64,000 nucleotides of DNA, from the NCBI GenBank assembly GCA_049584655.1, contig JBAUYF010000027.1, positions 139,836 to 203,835 of the forward strand, read 5' to 3'. The notes under the pieces are model-generated. The model did no database searches. It was not told the origin of the DNA and saw nothing but the letters and a program-made list of their open reading frames with translations. The DNA comes from Thermoplasmata archaeon. GTDB taxonomy: Archaea; Thermoplasmatota; Thermoplasmata; Lutacidiplasmatales; UBA184. Positions 18,679 through 26,588 of this stretch are shown here, one piece after another. The stretch's first letter is position 1. Every line of letters starts with the position of its first letter. The translations under genes and the position numbers were made by a program.

Positions 18679-20148
18679 CTATAATGCTCGCGCGAACTGG
18701 AGAGCCAGTTGCAGCAGGGTCGCCTCTCCGGGTTCCAGTCCTTGGGAATCCAGGTGGAGATGCGGCACAATCCCCGCGGAGCAGTTGGCGCTTGAATTCG
18801 TACTGAACCCCGTCACTGCGCCGGTAGTACCGTTCACGGTACCATTGACTTCCGTACCCAACCCCGTATTGCCGTTACAGGTGGTGTATTCTCCGATCCA
18901 AAAACCACCGTACGTGTAGTTGTAGTAGGTGCCCATGTACTCGTAGCTGTACGTGATGGTCGGGACCAAGAGCCAGTCCGCGCTCGCGCTTGAGTGGGCT
19001 GAGACGAAGGCCGACGCGTTCGTGTCGAAGTGGGTCGCAGCCTCGCTACTTCCGATGAAGGAGCCGGAAATCGTCGCGTTCTGGTAGACCGAGACGCAAC
19101 TCGGGCCGGAGATTTCTCCCAGGTTTGTTCCCACGCTATTGTAGACCAGGATGAGCTTAGCAGCGGGTGTAGGCGTAGCCGTGTACATGATGACAGCCCA
19201 GACCTCCATCGAGCCCCCACTGTAGGCGCCCGTGTAAGCCGGAATCGTGGGAGGCATAGTCCCTCCGGTAAGCGGACAGGTCGCGTTCGTTAGGTTTTGG
19301 TCCCACTCGCCGGGAGAAACTTGGGCGGTTACCGAGACGCCCACCGCAAATATCGGCGTATAGCCCGGCCCTGCGGTAGTGGCCGCAACCGGCTCCGCCT
19401 GGGAATACGTCGCGGTTCCGGGAGATCCGCCGCCTCCAGAGGAGGTGAAGGTAATGGTCTCCAAAGCCGCGGCGCCTGCCACCGTAACCGAGCCTGAACT
19501 CGGCGCGGCAGTGTAGCCCGTAACGGAACCTACGGTGTACGAAAAGGTCCCGTTCTTCTCGGTGAACAGGATGGTCGTGGTGGTAGAAGCGAGATGGGAG
19601 CCGTTCAGAGTGACCGACCAGCTGGTACCTGCCGTGAGTCCCGTTTCTGTATAGGTCACCGTGTAGGTTCCGGCGGCCAATACCGAGAACGCGATCGACT
19701 GAGCTTTGGCAGCACCTGCGACGGTGATGCTGCCCGAAACTGGAAGGGGAACATATCCGGCAGCTGACGCTGAGAACGTATACGTGCCATTCTTCTCCGA
19801 AAATACAATGGCTGTACTGGTCGAGGATTGCGTAGACCCGCCCAATGTTACGGACCACGATACCCCAGCGAACACACCCGCGCCCCCGGAAGGAAGTCCG
19901 GATTCGGTGAAAGTAACGTTGTAGCTTGGACCGCTCGGTCCGCTCGAGCTCGATCCTCCGATCTTGAAACCGGGGATCAATCCCGAGAACCCGAGCCCTA
20001 TGATCACGATAATGACCACTACGACCGCTACAATCGCCCCCTTCGCTCCGCCGGACATACCCTTCCGCGGGGGCGGGGGAGACGATGGAGGAGGCTGACC
20101 CATCGGCGCCGGAGGCGGAGTGTCAGCCGGAGTACCCGTGGTTGCCAT
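18679..20148 (-). CDS. type-II (N-terminal signal-anchor) cell-surface glycoprotein with tandem beta-sandwich repeats
   Basis: Cytoplasmic poly-Pro N-terminus (PPPAPMGQPPPSSPPPP), a single TM (IVAVVVVIIVIIGLGF), then a Ser/Thr/Gly-rich ectodomain with two repeats of about 95 aa (…SWSVTL.GS…EKNGT…SGS[IV]TVAGAA…) and at least 12 N-glycosylation sequons. Confidence 0.6.
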   Translation of the reverse strand: MATTGTPADTPPPAPMGQPPPSSPPPPRKGMSGGAKGAIVAVVVVIIVIIGLGFSGLIPGFKIGGSSSSGPSGPSYNVTFTESGLPSGGAGVFAGVSWSVTLGGSTQSSTSTAIVFSEKNGTYTFSASAAGYVPLPVSGSITVAGAAKAQSIAFSVLAAGTYTVTYTETGLTAGTSWSVTLNGSHLASTTTTILFTEKNGTFSYTVGSVTGYTAAPSSGSVTVAGAAALETITFTSSGGGGSPGTATYSQAEPVAATTAGPGYTPIFAVGVSVTAQVSPGEWDQNLTNATCPLTGGTMPPTIPAYTGAYSGGSMEVWAVIMYTATPTPAAKLILVYNSVGTNLGEISGPSCVSVYQNATISGSFIGSSEAATHFDTNASAFVSAHSSASADWLLVPTITYSYEYMGTYYNYTYGGFWIGEYTTCNGNTGLGTEVNGTVNGTTGAVTGFSTNSSANCSAGIVPHLHLDSQGLEPGEATLLQLALQFARAL

Positions 20149-20316: not shown

Positions 20317-20348
20317 TGGAAAATTACTTATGTTGAAATAGAGGTGAC

Positions 20349-20832
20349 AATGTCGAACACTGCCATCGTAGAACTGCCCGCGCTAAGCCCATGGACCGAC
20401 CTCGACACCGTCTGGGACGAGCTCCGAAGCCACTTCTTCGACTCGTTCGGGTTCCTGCCGTTCCCGAACGTCTCCGAAGCGTCCGCGAAGGAACTCGCGC
20501 CGAGACCCCCCCGCACCGACATTCAGGATACCGGCGCCGCGTACAAGATCGTCGCGGAGATTCCGGGAATCCCGAAGGACCGCGTGGAGATCCGCGTGAA
20601 GGGCTCCCAAGTGGAGATACGGGCGGAGAACGAAACCACCACCGAATCCAAGGACCAACCGTTCGTTCACCGCGAACGCTCGTTCCGCGGATTCTACCGG
20701 AGTTTCGAACTCCCGGAACCCGTGGTCGGTTCCGAGGCTACGGCCCATCTCGACCAGGGTGTGCTGGAACTCTCGCTACCAAAGCGAAGTCCCACGCCGT
20801 CCCCGGAAGAGGTCAAGGTCGCGGTACAGTAA
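20349..20832 (+). CDS. Hsp20/alpha-crystallin family small heat-shock protein
   Basis: Alpha-crystallin domain (AYKIVAEIPGIPKDRVEIRVKGSQVEIRAE...ERSFRGFYRSFELPEPV...LDQGVLELSLPK). Confidence 0.9.
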
Positions 20833-20911: not shown

Positions 20912-21211
20912 TCAGCCGAATCCCGGTAGGGATTTCGTGTCCTTGCCGGTCCCGGGCCGCAACGGCGACTTACGGAGCTCTTTGGGAGTCTCCACGAGGC
21001 GAACGAGTGGTGCGGACTGCACGATGTAGGCGGGAAGTCCCGTGTTGGGATCGTTACCCGCCCTTAGAATATTCATGATCTCGAGACGGACCTCGATGAT
21101 TGAGCCGTCCTTCAACTTGAGGCGAACCTTCGCGTCGCCTTCGAGCACGGTGTAATCGACGATCTCGGCATTCGAAAGATCCGGGGGAGGCCCCCCGGGG
21201 CCGCCCATCAT
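20912..21211 (-). CDS. conserved hypothetical protein (about 99 aa), co-transcribed downstream of rpl11
   Basis: The ATG-ATG start abuts the L11 stop. Beta-rich sequence (EIVDYTVLEGDAKVRLKLKDGSIIEVRLEIMNIL). The ORF-track start at 21292 is over-extended into L11. Confidence 0.45.
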   Translation of the reverse strand: MMGGPGGPPPDLSNAEIVDYTVLEGDAKVRLKLKDGSIIEVRLEIMNILRAGNDPNTGLPAYIVQSAPLVRLVETPKELRKSPLRPGTGKDTKSLPGFG

Positions 21212-21684
21212 TTGGCGCCTCGTTCGGCGACCCGTTGCTTGAGCAAGGTGCGCGGGTCCTCGCCTCCGACCGTCAGGCCCATCGAAACGCACGTCCCGAT
21301 GACCTGATTCATCTTCTCTTCGATCGAGCGACCGAACAAGTCCGCACCCTTGGCCTCGGCGATCTGTTTCACTTGCTCCAGCGAGACATCCCCCAGCACC
21401 TCGGACTTCGCCTTGCCCGATCCCTTCTCCTTACCGGCTTCCTTGAGCAGTAACGCCGCGACGGGCGGTCGCCCCACGACCAGCGTGAACTGTCGGGTCG
21501 ACGGATTGACTTTGACGACGACCGGAACCCGCATCCCGGCGAATCCCTTCGTCTGTTCATTGATCGCCTGGACGACCTGGACTACGTTGACGCCGAGTGG
21601 GCCGAGCGCGGGGCCGAGCGGGGGCCCGGCGGTCGCCTTGCCGCCCTCGACCAGGACGCTCACCTCATCCGCCACTCTTGCCAC
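21208..21684 (-). CDS. rpl11: 50S ribosomal protein L11 (uL11)
   Basis: PPLGPALGPLGVNVVQVVQAINEQTK is the L11 signature. 158 aa. Confidence 0.9.
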   Translation of the reverse strand: MARVADEVSVLVEGGKATAGPPLGPALGPLGVNVVQVVQAINEQTKGFAGMRVPVVVKVNPSTRQFTLVVGRPPVAALLLKEAGKEKGSGKAKSEVLGDVSLEQVKQIAEAKGADLFGRSIEEKMNQVIGTCVSMGLTVGGEDPRTLLKQRVAERGAK

Positions 21685-22654
21685 CTCCCTTCTCGAGCAT
21701 GCGCACGTGATCGCCGCGGACCGTAACGGGGATCGGCACGACGGCTTCGATCAGTTCCACCGTGATCTCCTCCTTGCCTTGGTCGATCTTCTTCACACGG
21801 GCCTTCTCGCCCTTGAACGGACCCGCGATCAGCTCGACGATCGCGCCTTCGACAAACCCTTCAACCGTGATCTTAGGTACGAGGAGCGGTTCGACCTCTT
21901 TGAGCGTCGTCTCGCCCGCCACGAGTCCCCGCGCCTTGCGGATGCCTTTCAACATCTCGCGGACCCCTTCGAAACTCATTCCCTCCGCGAATACGTAGCC
22001 ACGCAACGCCGCCGGCACGAGGAGCGAAAAGACGACATCCGACTTCTCTTCCGTACGGGCGAGCAGCGTGTCGGCGACTTCGCGCTCGTAGCCACGGGAG
22101 GTCTTGATCGCCAGCACGGCCTGGCGAGCCACGCACGACAGGACGAGCTTCGCGGGCCGGCTCGTGTCGGGCCATTGGGCGCTGAGGCGAATCTCGACGC
22201 GATCTCCATAGCGCACCCCGACGGGGGCCGTGATCTGGAAAGAGAGTGGGACGCTGGCTCCGGGCATCAGTTCTACGGACGCCTTCGCGGTCCGGGCCAC
22301 GAGATCAGCAAACGAGCGCTTACCCGGCGGAAGCCAGGAGACCGGCCATTCGGCGCCCTCGCCGGGATAGGTCGACGTATAGGCGATCTCGATCGAGAGC
22401 GCGGCGCTCCCCGTTTCAGAGTGTCCGCTCGAAAGCACGGCGGATAGGGTCGTGAGCGTACCCGCCGTCACATCCCGGACGGTGTCGTCAGCGGCTTTGA
22501 GGGTCAACAATGCCGGCGCTTCCGGCGGAGGGCCGGGCTTGGTCGGAGCGGCGGGAATCACCGTTTGCGCGGCCATCGGCTGCGCCGGTTTCGGCGTCTC
22601 GACGGCTTCACCGCCGAGCAGTCCAATGCCATCCTCGTTGGGTTTGCCCGCCAT
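21665..22654 (-). CDS. spt5: transcription elongation factor Spt5 (archaeal NusG homologue) with an atypical 180-aa N-terminal extension
   Basis: The C-terminal 149 aa are a canonical NGN plus KOW (LAIKTSRGYEREVADTL...GPFKGEKARVKKID). The ORF starts 28 nt after secE and is continuous, with plausible non-Arg-rich composition across the extension (22115-22654). Confidence 0.8.
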   Translation of the reverse strand: MAGKPNEDGIGLLGGEAVETPKPAQPMAAQTVIPAAPTKPGPPPEAPALLTLKAADDTVRDVTAGTLTTLSAVLSSGHSETGSAALSIEIAYTSTYPGEGAEWPVSWLPPGKRSFADLVARTAKASVELMPGASVPLSFQITAPVGVRYGDRVEIRLSAQWPDTSRPAKLVLSCVARQAVLAIKTSRGYEREVADTLLARTEEKSDVVFSLLVPAALRGYVFAEGMSFEGVREMLKGIRKARGLVAGETTLKEVEPLLVPKITVEGFVEGAIVELIAGPFKGEKARVKKIDQGKEEITVELIEAVVPIPVTVRGDHVRMLEKGGGKSGG

Positions 22655-22682
22655 AGAACGCCCTCCGTCCGGAAACCGGCGA

Positions 22683-22916
22683 CTACAGATAGCCCCAGAT
22701 CCAAGGTCCGAGGACGGTAAAGAAAAGGTAAATCGAGAAGCCGACGAGGCCGATCAGGATTGCGCCCAACGCCGTGACTTCGAGCACCTTGACGTATTCG
22801 TCGGTGGTGGGCTTCCGCGCCATGCGCAGGATCCGGCCGTACCGGCCGTGCCCGACGGTACGGAGCCGGCCGTCGAACTGGTCCTGGATATGCTTCGCCC
22901 GGTCGAGGAATGCCAT
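22683..22916 (-). CDS. secE: protein translocase subunit SecE/Sec61-gamma
   Basis: 77-aa protein with ARKPTTDEYVKV and a single C-terminal TM. Conserved position between ftsZ and spt5. Confidence 0.8.
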   Translation of the reverse strand: MAFLDRAKHIQDQFDGRLRTVGHGRYGRILRMARKPTTDEYVKVLEVTALGAILIGLVGFSIYLFFTVLGPWIWGYL

Positions 22917-22925
22917 TGTTCAATC

Positions 22926-24050
22926 CTAGCGGACGATGTCCAGCTCCGGACCCGTCTTGCGGGCCGGCGCCGCAGCGCCCGTACCGGAACCGAAAATCTG
23001 AGGGGATTTAACTCCGGTGACCACGAGCATCACGCGGATCGTACTCTGCATCGTGGGATCGACCGCCGCGCCCCAGATGATCCGAGCCGTCGGCGAGATC
23101 GCGCGTTGCACGACCTCGGAGGCCTTCTGCGCTTCGCTGACGGTCATGTCCGGGCCGCCCGTGACATTGATGAGCGCTCCGGTCGCGCCGGCGATATCGA
23201 CCTTCAGGAGCGGGGAATTGATCGCTTCGAGAACCGCATCTTCTGCTCGATTATCGCTCTCGGATTCTCCGATCCCAATTAGGGCCACGCCGCCGCCCTT
23301 CATGATCGTTCGAAGATCGTTGAAGTCGAGATTGACGAGCCCGGGGCGGGTGATGATCTCCGTGATTCCTCGGATTGCGCGGGCGAGTACGGAGTCAGCG
23401 ACCTTGAACGCCGTTTGTATCGGTAGTCGCGGAACGAGCTCGAGGAGTCGATCGTTCGGGATGGTGATCACCGTGTCGACCGAGGCGCGCAAGCGCTCGA
23501 GGCCCTCGGCCGCGTTCTCGCCGCGCACCAAACCCTCGGAGGCGAACGGGAGCGTGCAGACGGCGATCGTGAGTGGGTTCCCGCCGTGTGCGTCTTTGGC
23601 GACCTGCGCGACGACCGGTGCGGAGCCGGTACCGGTTCCGCCGCCGAGACCGAGCGTAATGAACACCATGTCGGAGTCGGCGAGCGCCTTGCGCAACTCG
23701 TCTTCCGCTTCGTGGGCCGCTTGTTCCCCGACGGACGGGATCGCGCCGGCTCCCAGTCCACGCGTCAGGCGGCGACCCAAGAGAATCTTCTTCGGCGCGT
23801 GGATGGCGAGCAGATGTTGCGCGTCGGTATTGCAGGCGACCATGTCCGCGCCCGCGAGTCCTTCCTCCGCGAGACGGTTGATCGTGTTACATCCCCCTCC
23901 GCCACAACCGACGACTTTGATGTTCGTCTTGAGGGAGGCGAGCACCGCTTCGAGTTCGGCGTCGTCGTTCGTCGGAGGGGGCGGAGCCTCGGCTCCACGC
24001 TTCGGATCGCTCGGCAAATGGGACAAGATCTCTTGCGCGAGCGGTCGCAT
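22926..24050 (-). CDS. ftsZ: cell division GTPase FtsZ
   Basis: Tubulin signature [13 protein letters not shown] and GTP-binding motifs. The start is ambiguous: the first Met is at 24098, but the Met at 24050 ([14 protein letters not shown]) fits the upstream TATA better. Confidence 0.85.
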
Positions 24051-24086
24051 GGATGAATTTCCTCGGAGCGGGGGAGCAGTAACCCG

Positions 24087-24095
24087 CTTATAAAG
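24087..24095. promoter_or_regulatory. shared TATA element CTTATAAAG between divergent ftsZ and mptE
   Basis: Near-palindromic TATA box. The centre lies about 33 nt upstream of the mptE GTG (24124), implying a leaderless mRNA, and about 41 nt upstream of ftsZ Met-17 on the opposite strand. Confidence 0.4.
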
Positions 24096-24123
24096 CATTA
24101 ATTCTGAATGGCGGCGGGTAGCC

Positions 24124-24849
24124 GTGGAGTACGCGGAGTGGGCTCCCTACTACGAGAAGATCCAGCAACAGTTTGGTTTTTCGTTCCCCCGCGAGGAAGC
24201 CGCCGCCGCCCGCCTCGTAGAGCTGCTCCCTGAGGCGGCGCGATCGCCGCCGTTGACGCGAATCGGACCTCGCCTCCGCGGACATGATGTAGTCGTCGTC
24301 GGGCTCGCACCCCGGGCCGGTCCCCCGCCGTTGTGGCGCCTGGCCTCCTCACGAGTGCCGCTCGCCGTTCTCGCCGCGGATGGAGCGGCTCGACCTTGCT
24401 TGGAAGCCGGGATCGTGCCGACCGCCATTGTAACGGATCTCGATGGACCGGTCGCTTCCGAGGTCTCGGCGAATGCGCGGGGGGCCTTGACGATCGTACA
24501 TGCTCACGGGGACAACATTCCCGCGCTCGAGGAGTGGGTCCCCCATTTCGCCGGTGAACTGGCCGGATCCTGGGCCGGTGCCCCGACTTCATCTCTCCTC
24601 GACGTGGGAGGTTTTACTGACGGGGATCGCGCCGCTTTCTTGGCGGCCCATCTCGGAGCTCGGCGCGTCTTGCTTTGGGGTTTCGACTTCAAGAATGTCG
24701 AAGAGATCGACGCCGTTACGGCCGATCTCAAACGGGCGAAGCTCGAGTGGGCCCGACAACTACTCGGAGTCTTGGCCGAGCGGTCCACGTCTCCCGTCCT
24801 GACGTGGGAGATCGATGGGACGCTGCATCCCTACGTCGGCGGCAAGTAA
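24124..24849 (+). CDS. mptE: 6-hydroxymethyl-7,8-dihydropterin pyrophosphokinase, archaeal MptE type (DUF115)
   Basis: Motifs IVTDLDG and HAHGDN. About 240 aa. GTG start. Confidence 0.65.
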
Positions 24850-26588
24850 GTCGTGTCGACCAGGTAGATTGCCTGCTGGGCATTTTCGTAGATGAGGACG
24901 AACGGAGCCGACGAAAGCCAGGCGATGGCCGCCGCGCTCAGGGGCGGTGCGGCCCCTGTGGGATTCAGCGCGACGCCGGCGTACATCACCGCATCCACGG
25001 CTACGTAGGAGATGGGGTGAATTACCGAGGGTGACGGCGAACCTCGAAGCTCTGCGGCCGCCGCTGTCCAGTTGGATCCGGTGAAGAGTGCCGGAGTAGA
25101 ATCCCACGTGGCGTTATTCCCATCGAACCCAAAGATCATCGAGCTCAACCGATGGTCAGAAGCGACCGCGGCGTGGGAGGGCACATCGATCCCGACCCAC
25201 ATCCAGAGCGCCGCATCTTGGACCGTGAGACCTTCTTGAAAACCACCGAAGTCATTCTGCGGAGGATAGACGATCGCGGCATTCGCACCCAGGAGCAGGA
25301 CCACCGCGACGGCGCCCACCACGATCGCACGACGTCCGTACCGATCTCCCGCACGAGCCACCAAACGACCGATCCCAACGGCAAACAGCAGTCCGAGAGG
25401 AAGGAAGAGGTATTCGACGTGCCGTGCCGCCGGCACGATCTGACTGAAGTTGGCGTTCGCGAGGTAGGTCGAAATGATCAGCCAGCCTAACGCGGAAAAT
25501 CCCAGCGCGCCGAGCCACGTTAACGAGAACGGCGCCATCCGAGCGGGGGTTAGTACGCGTCGACTACCCGCTCCGAAGAGGGAGAGAGCGAGGATCGGCG
25601 CGAAAAACAAGATCGCCGCAACCGTGGTCGTCTGCGATGTGCCGGGGATGGGGATGAAGACCACCGCGAGCACTCCCCCGAATACGGCAGCCGCGATGAG
25701 AACGGCGTCACGCAGCACACTCCGATCCGTCGGGAGGCGGACCCACGGTCGGTCGGTTCTTCCAGATTGACGGCGAAGGGCGATCAATCCCCCGACGAGG
25801 GCGATCAGCGCCAACCCCGCCGCTTCGAAGCCGGCGAATCCAACGCCCGTGCTGGTGTGGACACCGGGAATGATGACTTTCGATACGAAGGTCGTCGTGC
25901 CGTAGAACCAGAACAGGAACAAGCCTGTGAGGAATGCGGCCAAGAACGCCAGTTCGCGCCTCGGGTAACGGCGGCTCCATAGCCCAGGTCTCCAAAGCTC
26001 CAGCAGAAGAATGCCACCGAGGGCGCTCACGACGAAGAAGTAACTGGAAAGATGGTGCGTCACAATGAGCGCCGCGCTCGTAAGGGAGAGCGGCACGTAC
26101 CAACGAAGATCGCGACGGCCTTCGACGAGCATCCAGAGCGCGGCCACCACGAGAAAGTCCCCGATCGACAGAGGGGCCGGGTGCGCGATCGAGAAGAGGC
26201 GCGGCATCGCGAGGCTCGAAATCGCCGCCGCGAGCAACGCGATCGTGTCCTGCGGAAAGAGACGCCGGAAGAGTAGGAATAGGGGGAACACCGAGAGCAC
26301 GGCGACGACGGGAATGACCACGATGAGTGCGGTGAGCGCATCTGTCCCGTACGCGCCGGCGGCGGCGCCGGAGAGTAGCAAGATCCCCGGGAAGTCGGGA
26401 TAGGCCGCTCCCCATCCCAGGTATCCACCCCCATGGGGGAGGTGACCCGTTGACAACAGCACCGCGGTGAGTCGATAATATTCGCCGGTGTCAGAACCGA
26501 AGAGCGCGTAACTGAACAACGGTTGCAACGCGAGGAACACCAAGAAGAACGCGAGCGAAAAGAGCCAAAGGAAAGTGGCGCGGCTCAT
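24831..26588 (-). CDS. polytopic membrane protein (about 13 TM) with C-terminal extracytoplasmic domain; putative glycosyltransferase of the GT39/ArnT-like fold
   Basis: 585 aa, many TM helices, and an Asp-containing first loop. The C-terminal 130 aa are soluble. Function inferred from topology only. Confidence 0.4.
   Translation of the reverse strand: MSRATFLWLFSLAFFLVFLALQPLFSYALFGSDTGEYYRLTAVLLSTGHLPHGGGYLGWGAAYPDFPGILLLSGAAAGAYGTDALTALIVVIPVVAVLSVFPLFLLFRRLFPQDTIALLAAAISSLAMPRLFSIAHPAPLSIGDFLVVAALWMLVEGRRDLRWYVPLSLTSAALIVTHHLSSYFFVVSALGGILLLELWRPGLWSRRYPRRELAFLAAFLTGLFLFWFYGTTTFVSKVIIPGVHTSTGVGFAGFEAAGLALIALVGGLIALRRQSGRTDRPWVRLPTDRSVLRDAVLIAAAVFGGVLAVVFIPIPGTSQTTTVAAILFFAPILALSLFGAGSRRVLTPARMAPFSLTWLGALGFSALGWLIISTYLANANFSQIVPAARHVEYLFLPLGLLFAVGIGRLVARAGDRYGRRAIVVGAVAVVLLLGANAAIVYPPQNDFGGFQEGLTVQDAALWMWVGIDVPSHAAVASDHRLSSMIFGFDGNNATWDSTPALFTGSNWTAAAAELRGSPSPSVIHPISYVAVDAVMYAGVALNPTGAAPPLSAAAIAWLSSAPFVLIYENAQQAIYLVDTTYLPPT

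Follow-up and report, generated by a model that had tools for sequence, protein, structure and literature searches.

The spt5 Locus

The stretch of DNA analysed here (the window) comprises 64,000 nucleotides (nt) of contig JBAUYF010000027.1 from a Thermoplasmata archaeon (GenBank assembly GCA_049584655.1), and the gene under study is spt5, which codes for Spt5/NusG, to our knowledge the one transcription factor shared by all cellular life. The archaeal protein is treated as a minimal form composed of an NGN and a KOW domain. In the window, spt5 lies on the minus strand at 21665..22654 and encodes 329 amino acids (aa) plus a stop codon from an ATG start, with an additional N-terminal module placed ahead of the two familiar domains. 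That this module is real, translated and conserved is regarded as close to certain. The sequence comparisons set out below indicate that spt5 is translated from the ATG at 22654 as a single 329-aa polypeptide, the host being a Lutacidiplasmatales-like Thermoplasmata archaeon.

The neighboring genes are all encoded on the same strand. Directly upstream lies secE (22683..22916, 77 aa), assigned by NCBIfam TIGR00327 at 50 bits against a cut-off of 36, and beyond it ftsZ (22926..24098), which matches Pfam Tubulin and FtsZ_C and measures 390 aa as the longest open reading frame (ORF) and 374 aa in public records. Directly downstream is rpl11 (21208..21684), the gene for ribosomal protein L11, matched by Pfam Ribosomal_L11_N and Ribosomal_L11; its likely true start is at 21675, and gene callers choose this second GTG, which gives 155 aa compared with 158 aa for the longest ORF. 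The end of secE at 22683 leaves a spacer of 28 nt before spt5, within which a Shine-Dalgarno (SD)-like GGAGGG, read from the sequence, is located at 22661..22666, 6 nt upstream of the ATG. The initial annotation described a 329-aa spt5 ORF in an ftsZ-secE-spt5-rpl11 cluster, starting 28 nt past secE and ending in NGN and KOW domains. This description agrees well with the ORF length, the coordinates, the shared minus strand and the Pfam and NCBIfam assignments of the neighbors, and Pfam recovers both domains, with TIGR00405 scoring 148 bits over the C-terminal part.

Several parts can be distinguished along the protein, all on the minus strand. Residues 1-15 (22610..22654) form an N-terminal motif, M-x-G-x-P-x-(D/E)-(E/D)-G-I-G-L-L-x-G, delineated by conservation in the alignment. 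It is followed by a flexible linker rich in Pro and Ala (aa 16-45, 22520..22609), in which identity is low and the predicted local distance difference test score (pLDDT) is below 50. According to AlphaFold2 models, residues 46-178 (22121..22519) adopt a nine-strand immunoglobulin (Ig)-like beta-sandwich of the E-set, macroglobulin (MG) or NEW3-like kind. The NGN domain then occupies aa 179-258 (21881..22120), as indicated by its matches to 4zn1_A and 3p8b_B, while the KOW domain spans aa 266-322 (21689..21859), the latter boundary being where the TIGR00405 match ends. The final seven residues, aa 323-329, constitute a Gly-rich tail, GGGKSGG, which together with the stop codon covers 21665..21688 and is seen from the sequence to overlap the start of rpl11.

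In this overlap, AAG GGA GGT GGC AAG AGT GGC GGA TGA (21665-21691, minus strand) encodes KGGGKSGG, so that the tail and the codon for Lys322 contain both an SD sequence (GGGAGG) and the probable GTG start (21675) of rpl11. Of 79 loci, 70 have GGAGG within the final 36 nt of spt5, and the conservation of the Spt5 tail probably arises from this overlapping initiation signal. At the other end of the gene, an AT-rich patch is situated in the 3′ end of secE (22717-22736, minus strand), approximately 65-80 nt before the spt5 ATG, and is the sole one near the start. The patch may serve as a promoter element or may simply reflect the codons of a hydrophobic segment.

The Canonical NGN-KOW Core

The C-terminal part of the protein was compared with profiles and solved structures of archaeal Spt5. 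TIGR00405, the equivalog model for archaeal Spt5, aligns with aa 182-322 from profile position 2 to 142 of 145, with 148.2 bits against a cut-off of 69.95, and Pfam locates NGN (PF03439) at aa 182-258 (E = 3e-11) and KOW (PF00467) at aa 270-300 (E = 2e-7). From C174 to the end, the alignments with solved Spt5 structures are ungapped and of equal span, with E values ranging from 5e-35, obtained for Pyrococcus furiosus 3P8B, to 6e-33; counted from C174, residues 7-149 align with residues 2-144 of Methanocaldococcus jannaschii (Mja) 4ZN1. A179 is thereby the equivalent of Met1 in the canonical Mja protein. Among homologs the KOW region is 94-100% identical.

In Mja Spt5, Ala4, Tyr42 and Leu44 line the hydrophobic depression that binds the clamp coiled-coil of RNA polymerase (RNAP), and Glu46 contacts Spt4 (PMC2896526). 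The corresponding residues here are A182, Y220, F222 and E224, all of which are invariant in 50 sequences. Judged by these alignments, the C-terminal 151 aa constitute a full canonical Spt5 with the predicted RNAP-pocket and Spt4-contact residues intact. Since the canonical Met1 corresponds to A179, the additional module is attached only three residues before the pocket residue A182. No spt4-like gene and no second gene with NGN or KOW domains were detected in the 64-kb window. The sandwich was also considered as a replacement for Spt4, which is unlikely because the Spt4-contact residue E224 is invariant.

Canonical archaeal Spt5, as represented by Mja 4ZN1 and 3LPE, P. furiosus 3P8B and 3QQC, and TIGR00405, therefore shares with the present protein the NGN-KOW core as well as the secE-spt5-rpl11 position. 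It differs in having two domains and about 145-155 aa, the canonical proteins compared being 147-152 aa long and starting at the equivalent of A179, whereas the window protein has 329 aa, of which 178 are extra N-terminal residues. A 2026 survey of elongation-factor architectures identified Spt5 by NGN plus at least one KOW. The window protein is, by its sequence features, a member of the Spt5 family in all respects compared except the two-domain architecture.

Evidence That the Extension Is Coding

Homologs were collected by a search with the whole protein, which returned more than 100 proteins of 325-338 aa, with 71-96% identity and 85-100% coverage (98-100% for most), from NCBI, JGI, ENA and Logan assemblies of “Thermoplasmata archaeon” and “Candidatus Lutacidiplasmatales”. 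In addition, 80 comparative loci were fetched, one genome per GTDB species, in 73 of which the ORF was complete. In every one of these 73 loci the ORF is unbroken from just past secE through KOW and is 326-345 aa long. The GC content at third codon positions (GC3) is 0.77 in the extension, close to the 0.78 of the NGN-KOW part and the 0.76-0.85 of ftsZ, secE and rpl11. Mean identity among homologs is 63% for aa 1-15, about 25% for aa 16-45, 67% for aa 46 to approximately 178, and 95% for NGN-KOW. The ratios of nonsynonymous to synonymous substitution rates (dN/dS; Nei-Gojobori, 400 pairs) are 0.38 for the motif, 0.77 for the linker, 0.40 for the sandwich and 0.07 for NGN-KOW, although their weight as evidence is reduced because dS, at 0.6-1.1, is near saturation and the ratios are only approximate. 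Moreover, six contigs, which stem from at least three different samples, all carry a called protein identical over its 329 aa, and this rules out a sequencing error of the window. The GC3 values, the conservation in homologs, the dN/dS ratios and the identical contigs together imply that the extension is coding, is under purifying selection and is no assembly artefact. Conservation of the upstream region as coding sequence in relatives, which had been named as a decisive check on the long ORF, is thus upheld, with a mean identity of 67%, a dN/dS of about 0.4 and a confidently predicted fold.

The position of the translation start was then considered in terms of the boundary between the module and NGN. 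In the window, V175 and V180, which stand where canonical Spt5 would start, are both in-frame GTG codons. In the species compared, these two codons are mostly GTC or specify other residues. For 29 of the 73 species, residues 160-185 contain no in-frame ATG, GTG or TTG; in 24 of 73, the first in-frame ATG past residue 20 is residue 226, inside NGN. A strong SD-like 5-mer at -18..-3 of the long start was found in 32 of 72 species (background 0.17), compared with 0 of 72 before the NGN boundary, and the long start codon is ATG in 62 of 72. In the window, no AT-rich element exists within 390 nt upstream of the NGN boundary. As far as these comparisons reach, fusion of the module to Spt5 is obligatory in the Lutacidiplasmatales-like clade. 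A start codon at the NGN domain, which the initial annotation listed as a finding that would overturn its proposal, is therefore not borne out, given the 29 of 73 species without a start codon and the SD counts of 0 and 32 of 72.

Three other explanations of the long ORF can be weighed against these data. The first is that two products are made in this particular genome, the long form and a Spt5 of canonical length, the latter arising from GTG-175 or GTG-180 or from cleavage at the C-V-A-R-Q junction. The presence of GTG at both positions in the window and the invariance of the junction residues R177 and Q178 within the clade are in keeping with this, but the boundary is preceded by neither an SD nor an AT-rich element, the internal start is unavailable in 40% of species, and a continuous beta-strand explains the conservation of the junction equally well; a second product is accordingly improbable. 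The second is that the start has been mis-called, the true Spt5 beginning at an internal GTG at about 22115-22132 and the upstream 540 nt being non-coding or a spurious GC-rich ORF. The GTG codons V175 and V180 do stand at the canonical start position, and the annotation pipeline PGAP placed an internal start in one distant clade. Nevertheless, the boundary codons are GTC or non-Val in most species, nearly two-fifths (29/73) lack any start codon there, the SD-like motif is missing before the boundary in all 72 species, and the upstream part has gene-like GC3, a dN/dS of 0.4 and a pLDDT of 90. The “gap” left by the short annotation in that distant clade (locus L083) also encodes the domain in frame, and a mis-called start is very hard to sustain. 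Finally, an artefactual joining of two neighboring genes, in which assembly or sequencing errors removed a stop or introduced a frameshift, has a negligible chance of being correct, since some public fragments are visibly frameshifted or chimeric (P0014, P0148 and P0149) but the ORF is continuous in 73 species genomes from many studies and in six contigs with the identical protein, and the domain is never free-standing among 1.84e9 representative proteins. The removal of a stop codon by error, which had likewise been raised as a possible refutation, fails on the same unbroken frames.

Among the public copies of the long Spt5, P0014, P0148, P0149, P0203 and P0218 carry a frameshift or are chimeric, which shows as Arg-rich stretches read out of frame or as an unrelated C-terminus. 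Errors of assembly appear to account for these copies, which should not be taken for alternative architectures.

Parts and Predicted Fold of the Module

The initial annotation described the extension as a 180-aa segment with a Pro/Ala-rich linker and a beta-rich domain. Both are present, and the segment is made up of three parts, motif, linker and sandwich, instead of one domain. In the motif (GIGLLxG), G11 and L12 are invariant, and G9, I10, L13 and G15 are conserved at 90% or more. Its counterparts in distant clades are MGLLDDF, MGLFGDIE, VDLFDGM and LSILEGF, in which a hydrophobic pair near the N-terminus is kept. The linker in low-GC clades is rich in Lys, Glu and Pro in place of Pro and Ala, and is 16-25 aa long. 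No signal peptide-like segment was found, the N-terminus of the window protein being acidic and disordered, with a net charge of -2 over aa 1-45.

Searches of Pfam and NCBIfam with the first 180 aa gave no match, and a profile search of Protein Data Bank sequences with the extension yielded chance-level matches only (E = 0.28 and 1.1). Structure prediction had also been proposed as a check. With the full-length alignment, AlphaFold2 predicted a confident all-beta domain at residues 50-178 and disorder at residues 1-45. When the sandwich was modelled alone with distant relatives in the alignment, a nine-strand Ig-like sandwich was obtained with a pLDDT of 90.4 and a predicted template modelling score (pTM) of 0.84. 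In the full-length model, the final strand of the sandwich (168-178) runs directly into NGN beta1 (180-184). The net charge of the sandwich ranges from 0 to -6, with isoelectric points of 4.9-6.8, in five clades, and is 0 in the window protein. A nucleic-acid-binding domain was considered and set aside in view of this charge range.

Among described families, PF10633 (NEW3/NPCBM_assoc) is matched by four of 22 relatives with a best E value of 3.8e-5; P0151 reaches 22.0 bits compared with a gathering score of 24.4. The window domain itself matched neither PF10633 nor CARDB at any threshold. NEW3/NPCBM_assoc, CARDB, MG and the N-terminal domain of GH123 share the same Ig-like sandwich fold, with an identity of no more than 15%. 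These sandwiches are typically extracellular and belong to enzymes or surface proteins, whereas the sandwich described here is carried by a cytoplasmic transcription factor.

Distribution of the Module

A scan of one genome per GTDB species demonstrated that the domain is encoded in 153 genomes, all of them Thermoplasmata and including Candidatus Lutacidiplasma silvani. The organisms concerned are soil archaea that have not been cultured. An exhaustive profile search with the N-terminal region against 1.84 billion representative proteins returned only 13 proteins. The close matches among these 13 are full-length, fragment or frameshifted copies of the long spt5. Five are distant, and include P0150, P0153 and the P0152/P0155 cluster, proteins rich in Lys, Glu and Ile that come from low-GC Thermoplasmatota and measure 305-326 aa; in these the order of parts is N-terminal motif, charged linker, sandwich, NGN and KOW. 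A second profile search that included the distant members added a soil clade whose proteins start MGLLDDFS (the L083 group). At least four distant sequence groups, represented by P0150, P0153, P0155 and the L083 group, thus keep the architecture. Compared with the window protein, NGN-KOW in the distant clades is 54-64% identical and the sandwich only about 20%, the residues retained in the sandwich being Y, W and P-x-G-x-R-Y-G. The ftsZ-secE-spt5-rpl11 context was observed in all three distant clades examined, synteny being taken from the called genes in L082-L090.

The search with the extension alone had been proposed to establish whether the domain occurs fused or free-standing. It was found fused to Spt5 only, and among the 1.84e9 representative proteins no free-standing copy and no copy on a protein other than Spt5 was detected. 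The L083 group provides an example of how the module can escape notice. At L083 3692-4618 and in L084 (GCA_005879065.1 / GCA_005879105.1), the deposited Spt5 has 205 aa and is read from an internal ATG. The real ORF in L083 encodes 308 aa and begins with MGLLDDFSKRE only 4 nt past the secE stop, so that the annotation cuts the domain off. In both L083 and L084, two tandem ftsZ genes are located upstream of secE. Long Spt5 proteins are already public and are labelled only “Spt5” or “NusG”. The module is invisible in databases because pipelines either apply this plain label or, as in L083, remove the module.

In the literature searched, which took in a NusG review (PMC7819879) and the 2026 survey cited above, nothing was found that describes an archaeal Spt5 with a folded N-terminal domain, and the genome paper on the Lutacidiplasmatales does not mention Spt5/NusG. 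The proposal of a novel Spt5 architecture consequently stands with respect to the literature. The architecture is no peculiarity of this genome, given the 153 species representatives and at least four distant groups that share the architecture.

Other Features of the Window

Beyond the cluster, several observations concern the surrounding genes. In the window, rpl11 is not followed by the usual L1-L10-L12 genes. A small ORF (20912-21292, minus strand) comes right after it, with 126 aa at its longest and 98-99 aa in public records; it has no Pfam match, and its position is conserved in nearly identical contigs. An Hsp20 gene is next (20344-20832, plus strand). Further along, a 489-aa ORF (18679-20148, minus strand) has a Pro-rich N-terminus and a single hydrophobic segment, and contains internal repeats of some 90 aa (“YTVTYTETGL...GTSWSVTLNGS”); it gives no Pfam match and is probably a surface protein. 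On the other side of the cluster, a 585-aa protein (24831-26588, minus strand) with many hydrophobic segments and no Pfam match adjoins a gene for an MptE-like kinase (24124-24849, plus strand).

Proposed Role of the Module

A possible arrangement of the module on the transcription complex can be outlined. The NGN domain would make its usual contacts with the clamp coiled-coil and Spt4. The sandwich, being rigidly or closely joined to beta1, would then sit on or beside the surface of the RNAP clamp or cleft, where it would provide an extra protein-protein contact that stabilizes or modulates the Spt5-RNAP complex. The N-terminal motif, held on a tether of 16-30 aa, may serve as a short linear motif, either capturing a partner or docking back on the complex. 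The predicted proximity to RNAP follows from the junction with NGN three residues before the pocket residue, and protein contact is likelier than contact with DNA or RNA because the sandwich is not basic. By analogy with other NusG/Spt5 proteins, a role for the sandwich as an RNAP-proximal protein contact or adaptor is suggested only tentatively. The statement as a whole, namely that the module is real and conserved and has an RNAP-proximal contact role, is somewhat better than an even bet.

Several points weigh against assigning the sandwich such a role. In the full-length model the pLDDT of NGN-KOW is only 40-70, presumably because the alignment is nearly invariant there, and the orientation of the sandwich relative to NGN rests on this region. 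The N-terminal motif is docked nowhere in that model. Furthermore, the sandwich has a generic fold that gives no functional clue, and most related folds are extracellular. What has been found is well supported as a lead but does not amount to a mechanism.

A broader proposal is that the Thermoplasmatota independently turned the minimal Spt5 into a platform factor, in which the sandwich and the tethered motif would bring a specific partner to RNAP during elongation or initiation. Such a reading is rather doubtful at present. If true, it would represent a convergent archaeal counterpart of the regions with which eukaryotic Spt5 recruits partners at its N- and C-termini, and might have to do with the TFE loss reported for Thermoplasmata.

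Regarding the latter, the module might compensate for the absence of TFE by taking over contacts on the clamp or stalk side, or control of clamp opening. Thermoplasmata are reported in a review to be without TFE alpha and beta (PMC7289017), and TFE and Spt4/5 are reported to compete for the same site on the RNAP clamp coiled-coil (PMC3223566). Both reports favor such compensation, as does the confinement of the module to Thermoplasmatota, next to the pocket residue A182. The fold, however, is unlike the winged-helix or Zn-ribbon domains of TFE, and the link is correlational only, with the absence of TFE taken from the review. Compensation for TFE is therefore considered unlikely.

Mimicry of the C-terminal tail of aP1, a protein of the ribosomal stalk, by which the tethered motif would recruit translational GTPases to RNAP and strengthen transcription-translation coupling, is considerably less plausible still: there is a loose likeness in the LL/LF pair beside Gly, the acidic context and the position at the end of a long Ala/Pro/Glu/Lys-rich tether, and the aP1 tail likewise works through the hydrophobic residues L103, L106 and F107, but it also needs the free C-terminal carboxylate of Gly108, which is unavailable to an N-terminal motif (PMC4267659), and the spacing of the hydrophobic residues differs.

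Relationship to Known Systems and Significance

Returning to the contact role of the sandwich, the closest parallel is provided by the bacterial accessory domain DII, which is also present in NusG of Aquifex aeolicus. In Thermotoga maritima NusG, DII is likewise a single extra folded domain near NGN on a member of the NusG/Spt5 family. There it is reported to support recruitment to the elongation complex and to make the NusG:RNAP complex more stable (PMC7819879). The positions differ, since DII of Thermotogae and Aquificae is inserted inside NGN, whereas the NGN of the window protein is without insertion and the extra domain is wholly N-terminal.

The initial annotation also drew a comparison with eukaryotic Spt5. 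The N-terminal region of the eukaryotic protein acts in part as an interaction platform. It is an extension N-terminal to NGN on an elongation factor bound to RNAP (PMC7819879), in which respect the two are alike. The comparison does not hold in substance, because the eukaryotic region is long, strongly acidic and disordered, whereas only 45 aa are disordered here and the bulk is a folded, near-neutral sandwich. The module and the eukaryotic extension are likely independent in origin. By analogy, the function of the module may resemble that of DII in Thermotoga NusG and, less closely, the use of the eukaryotic Spt5 extensions as a platform.

For the biology of the family, a whole archaeal lineage whose Spt5 carries an extra folded domain and a terminal motif means that archaeal Spt5 has also been elaborated. 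The module also offers a concrete object with which to ask what other functions or partners an elongation factor seated on the clamp can be connected to.

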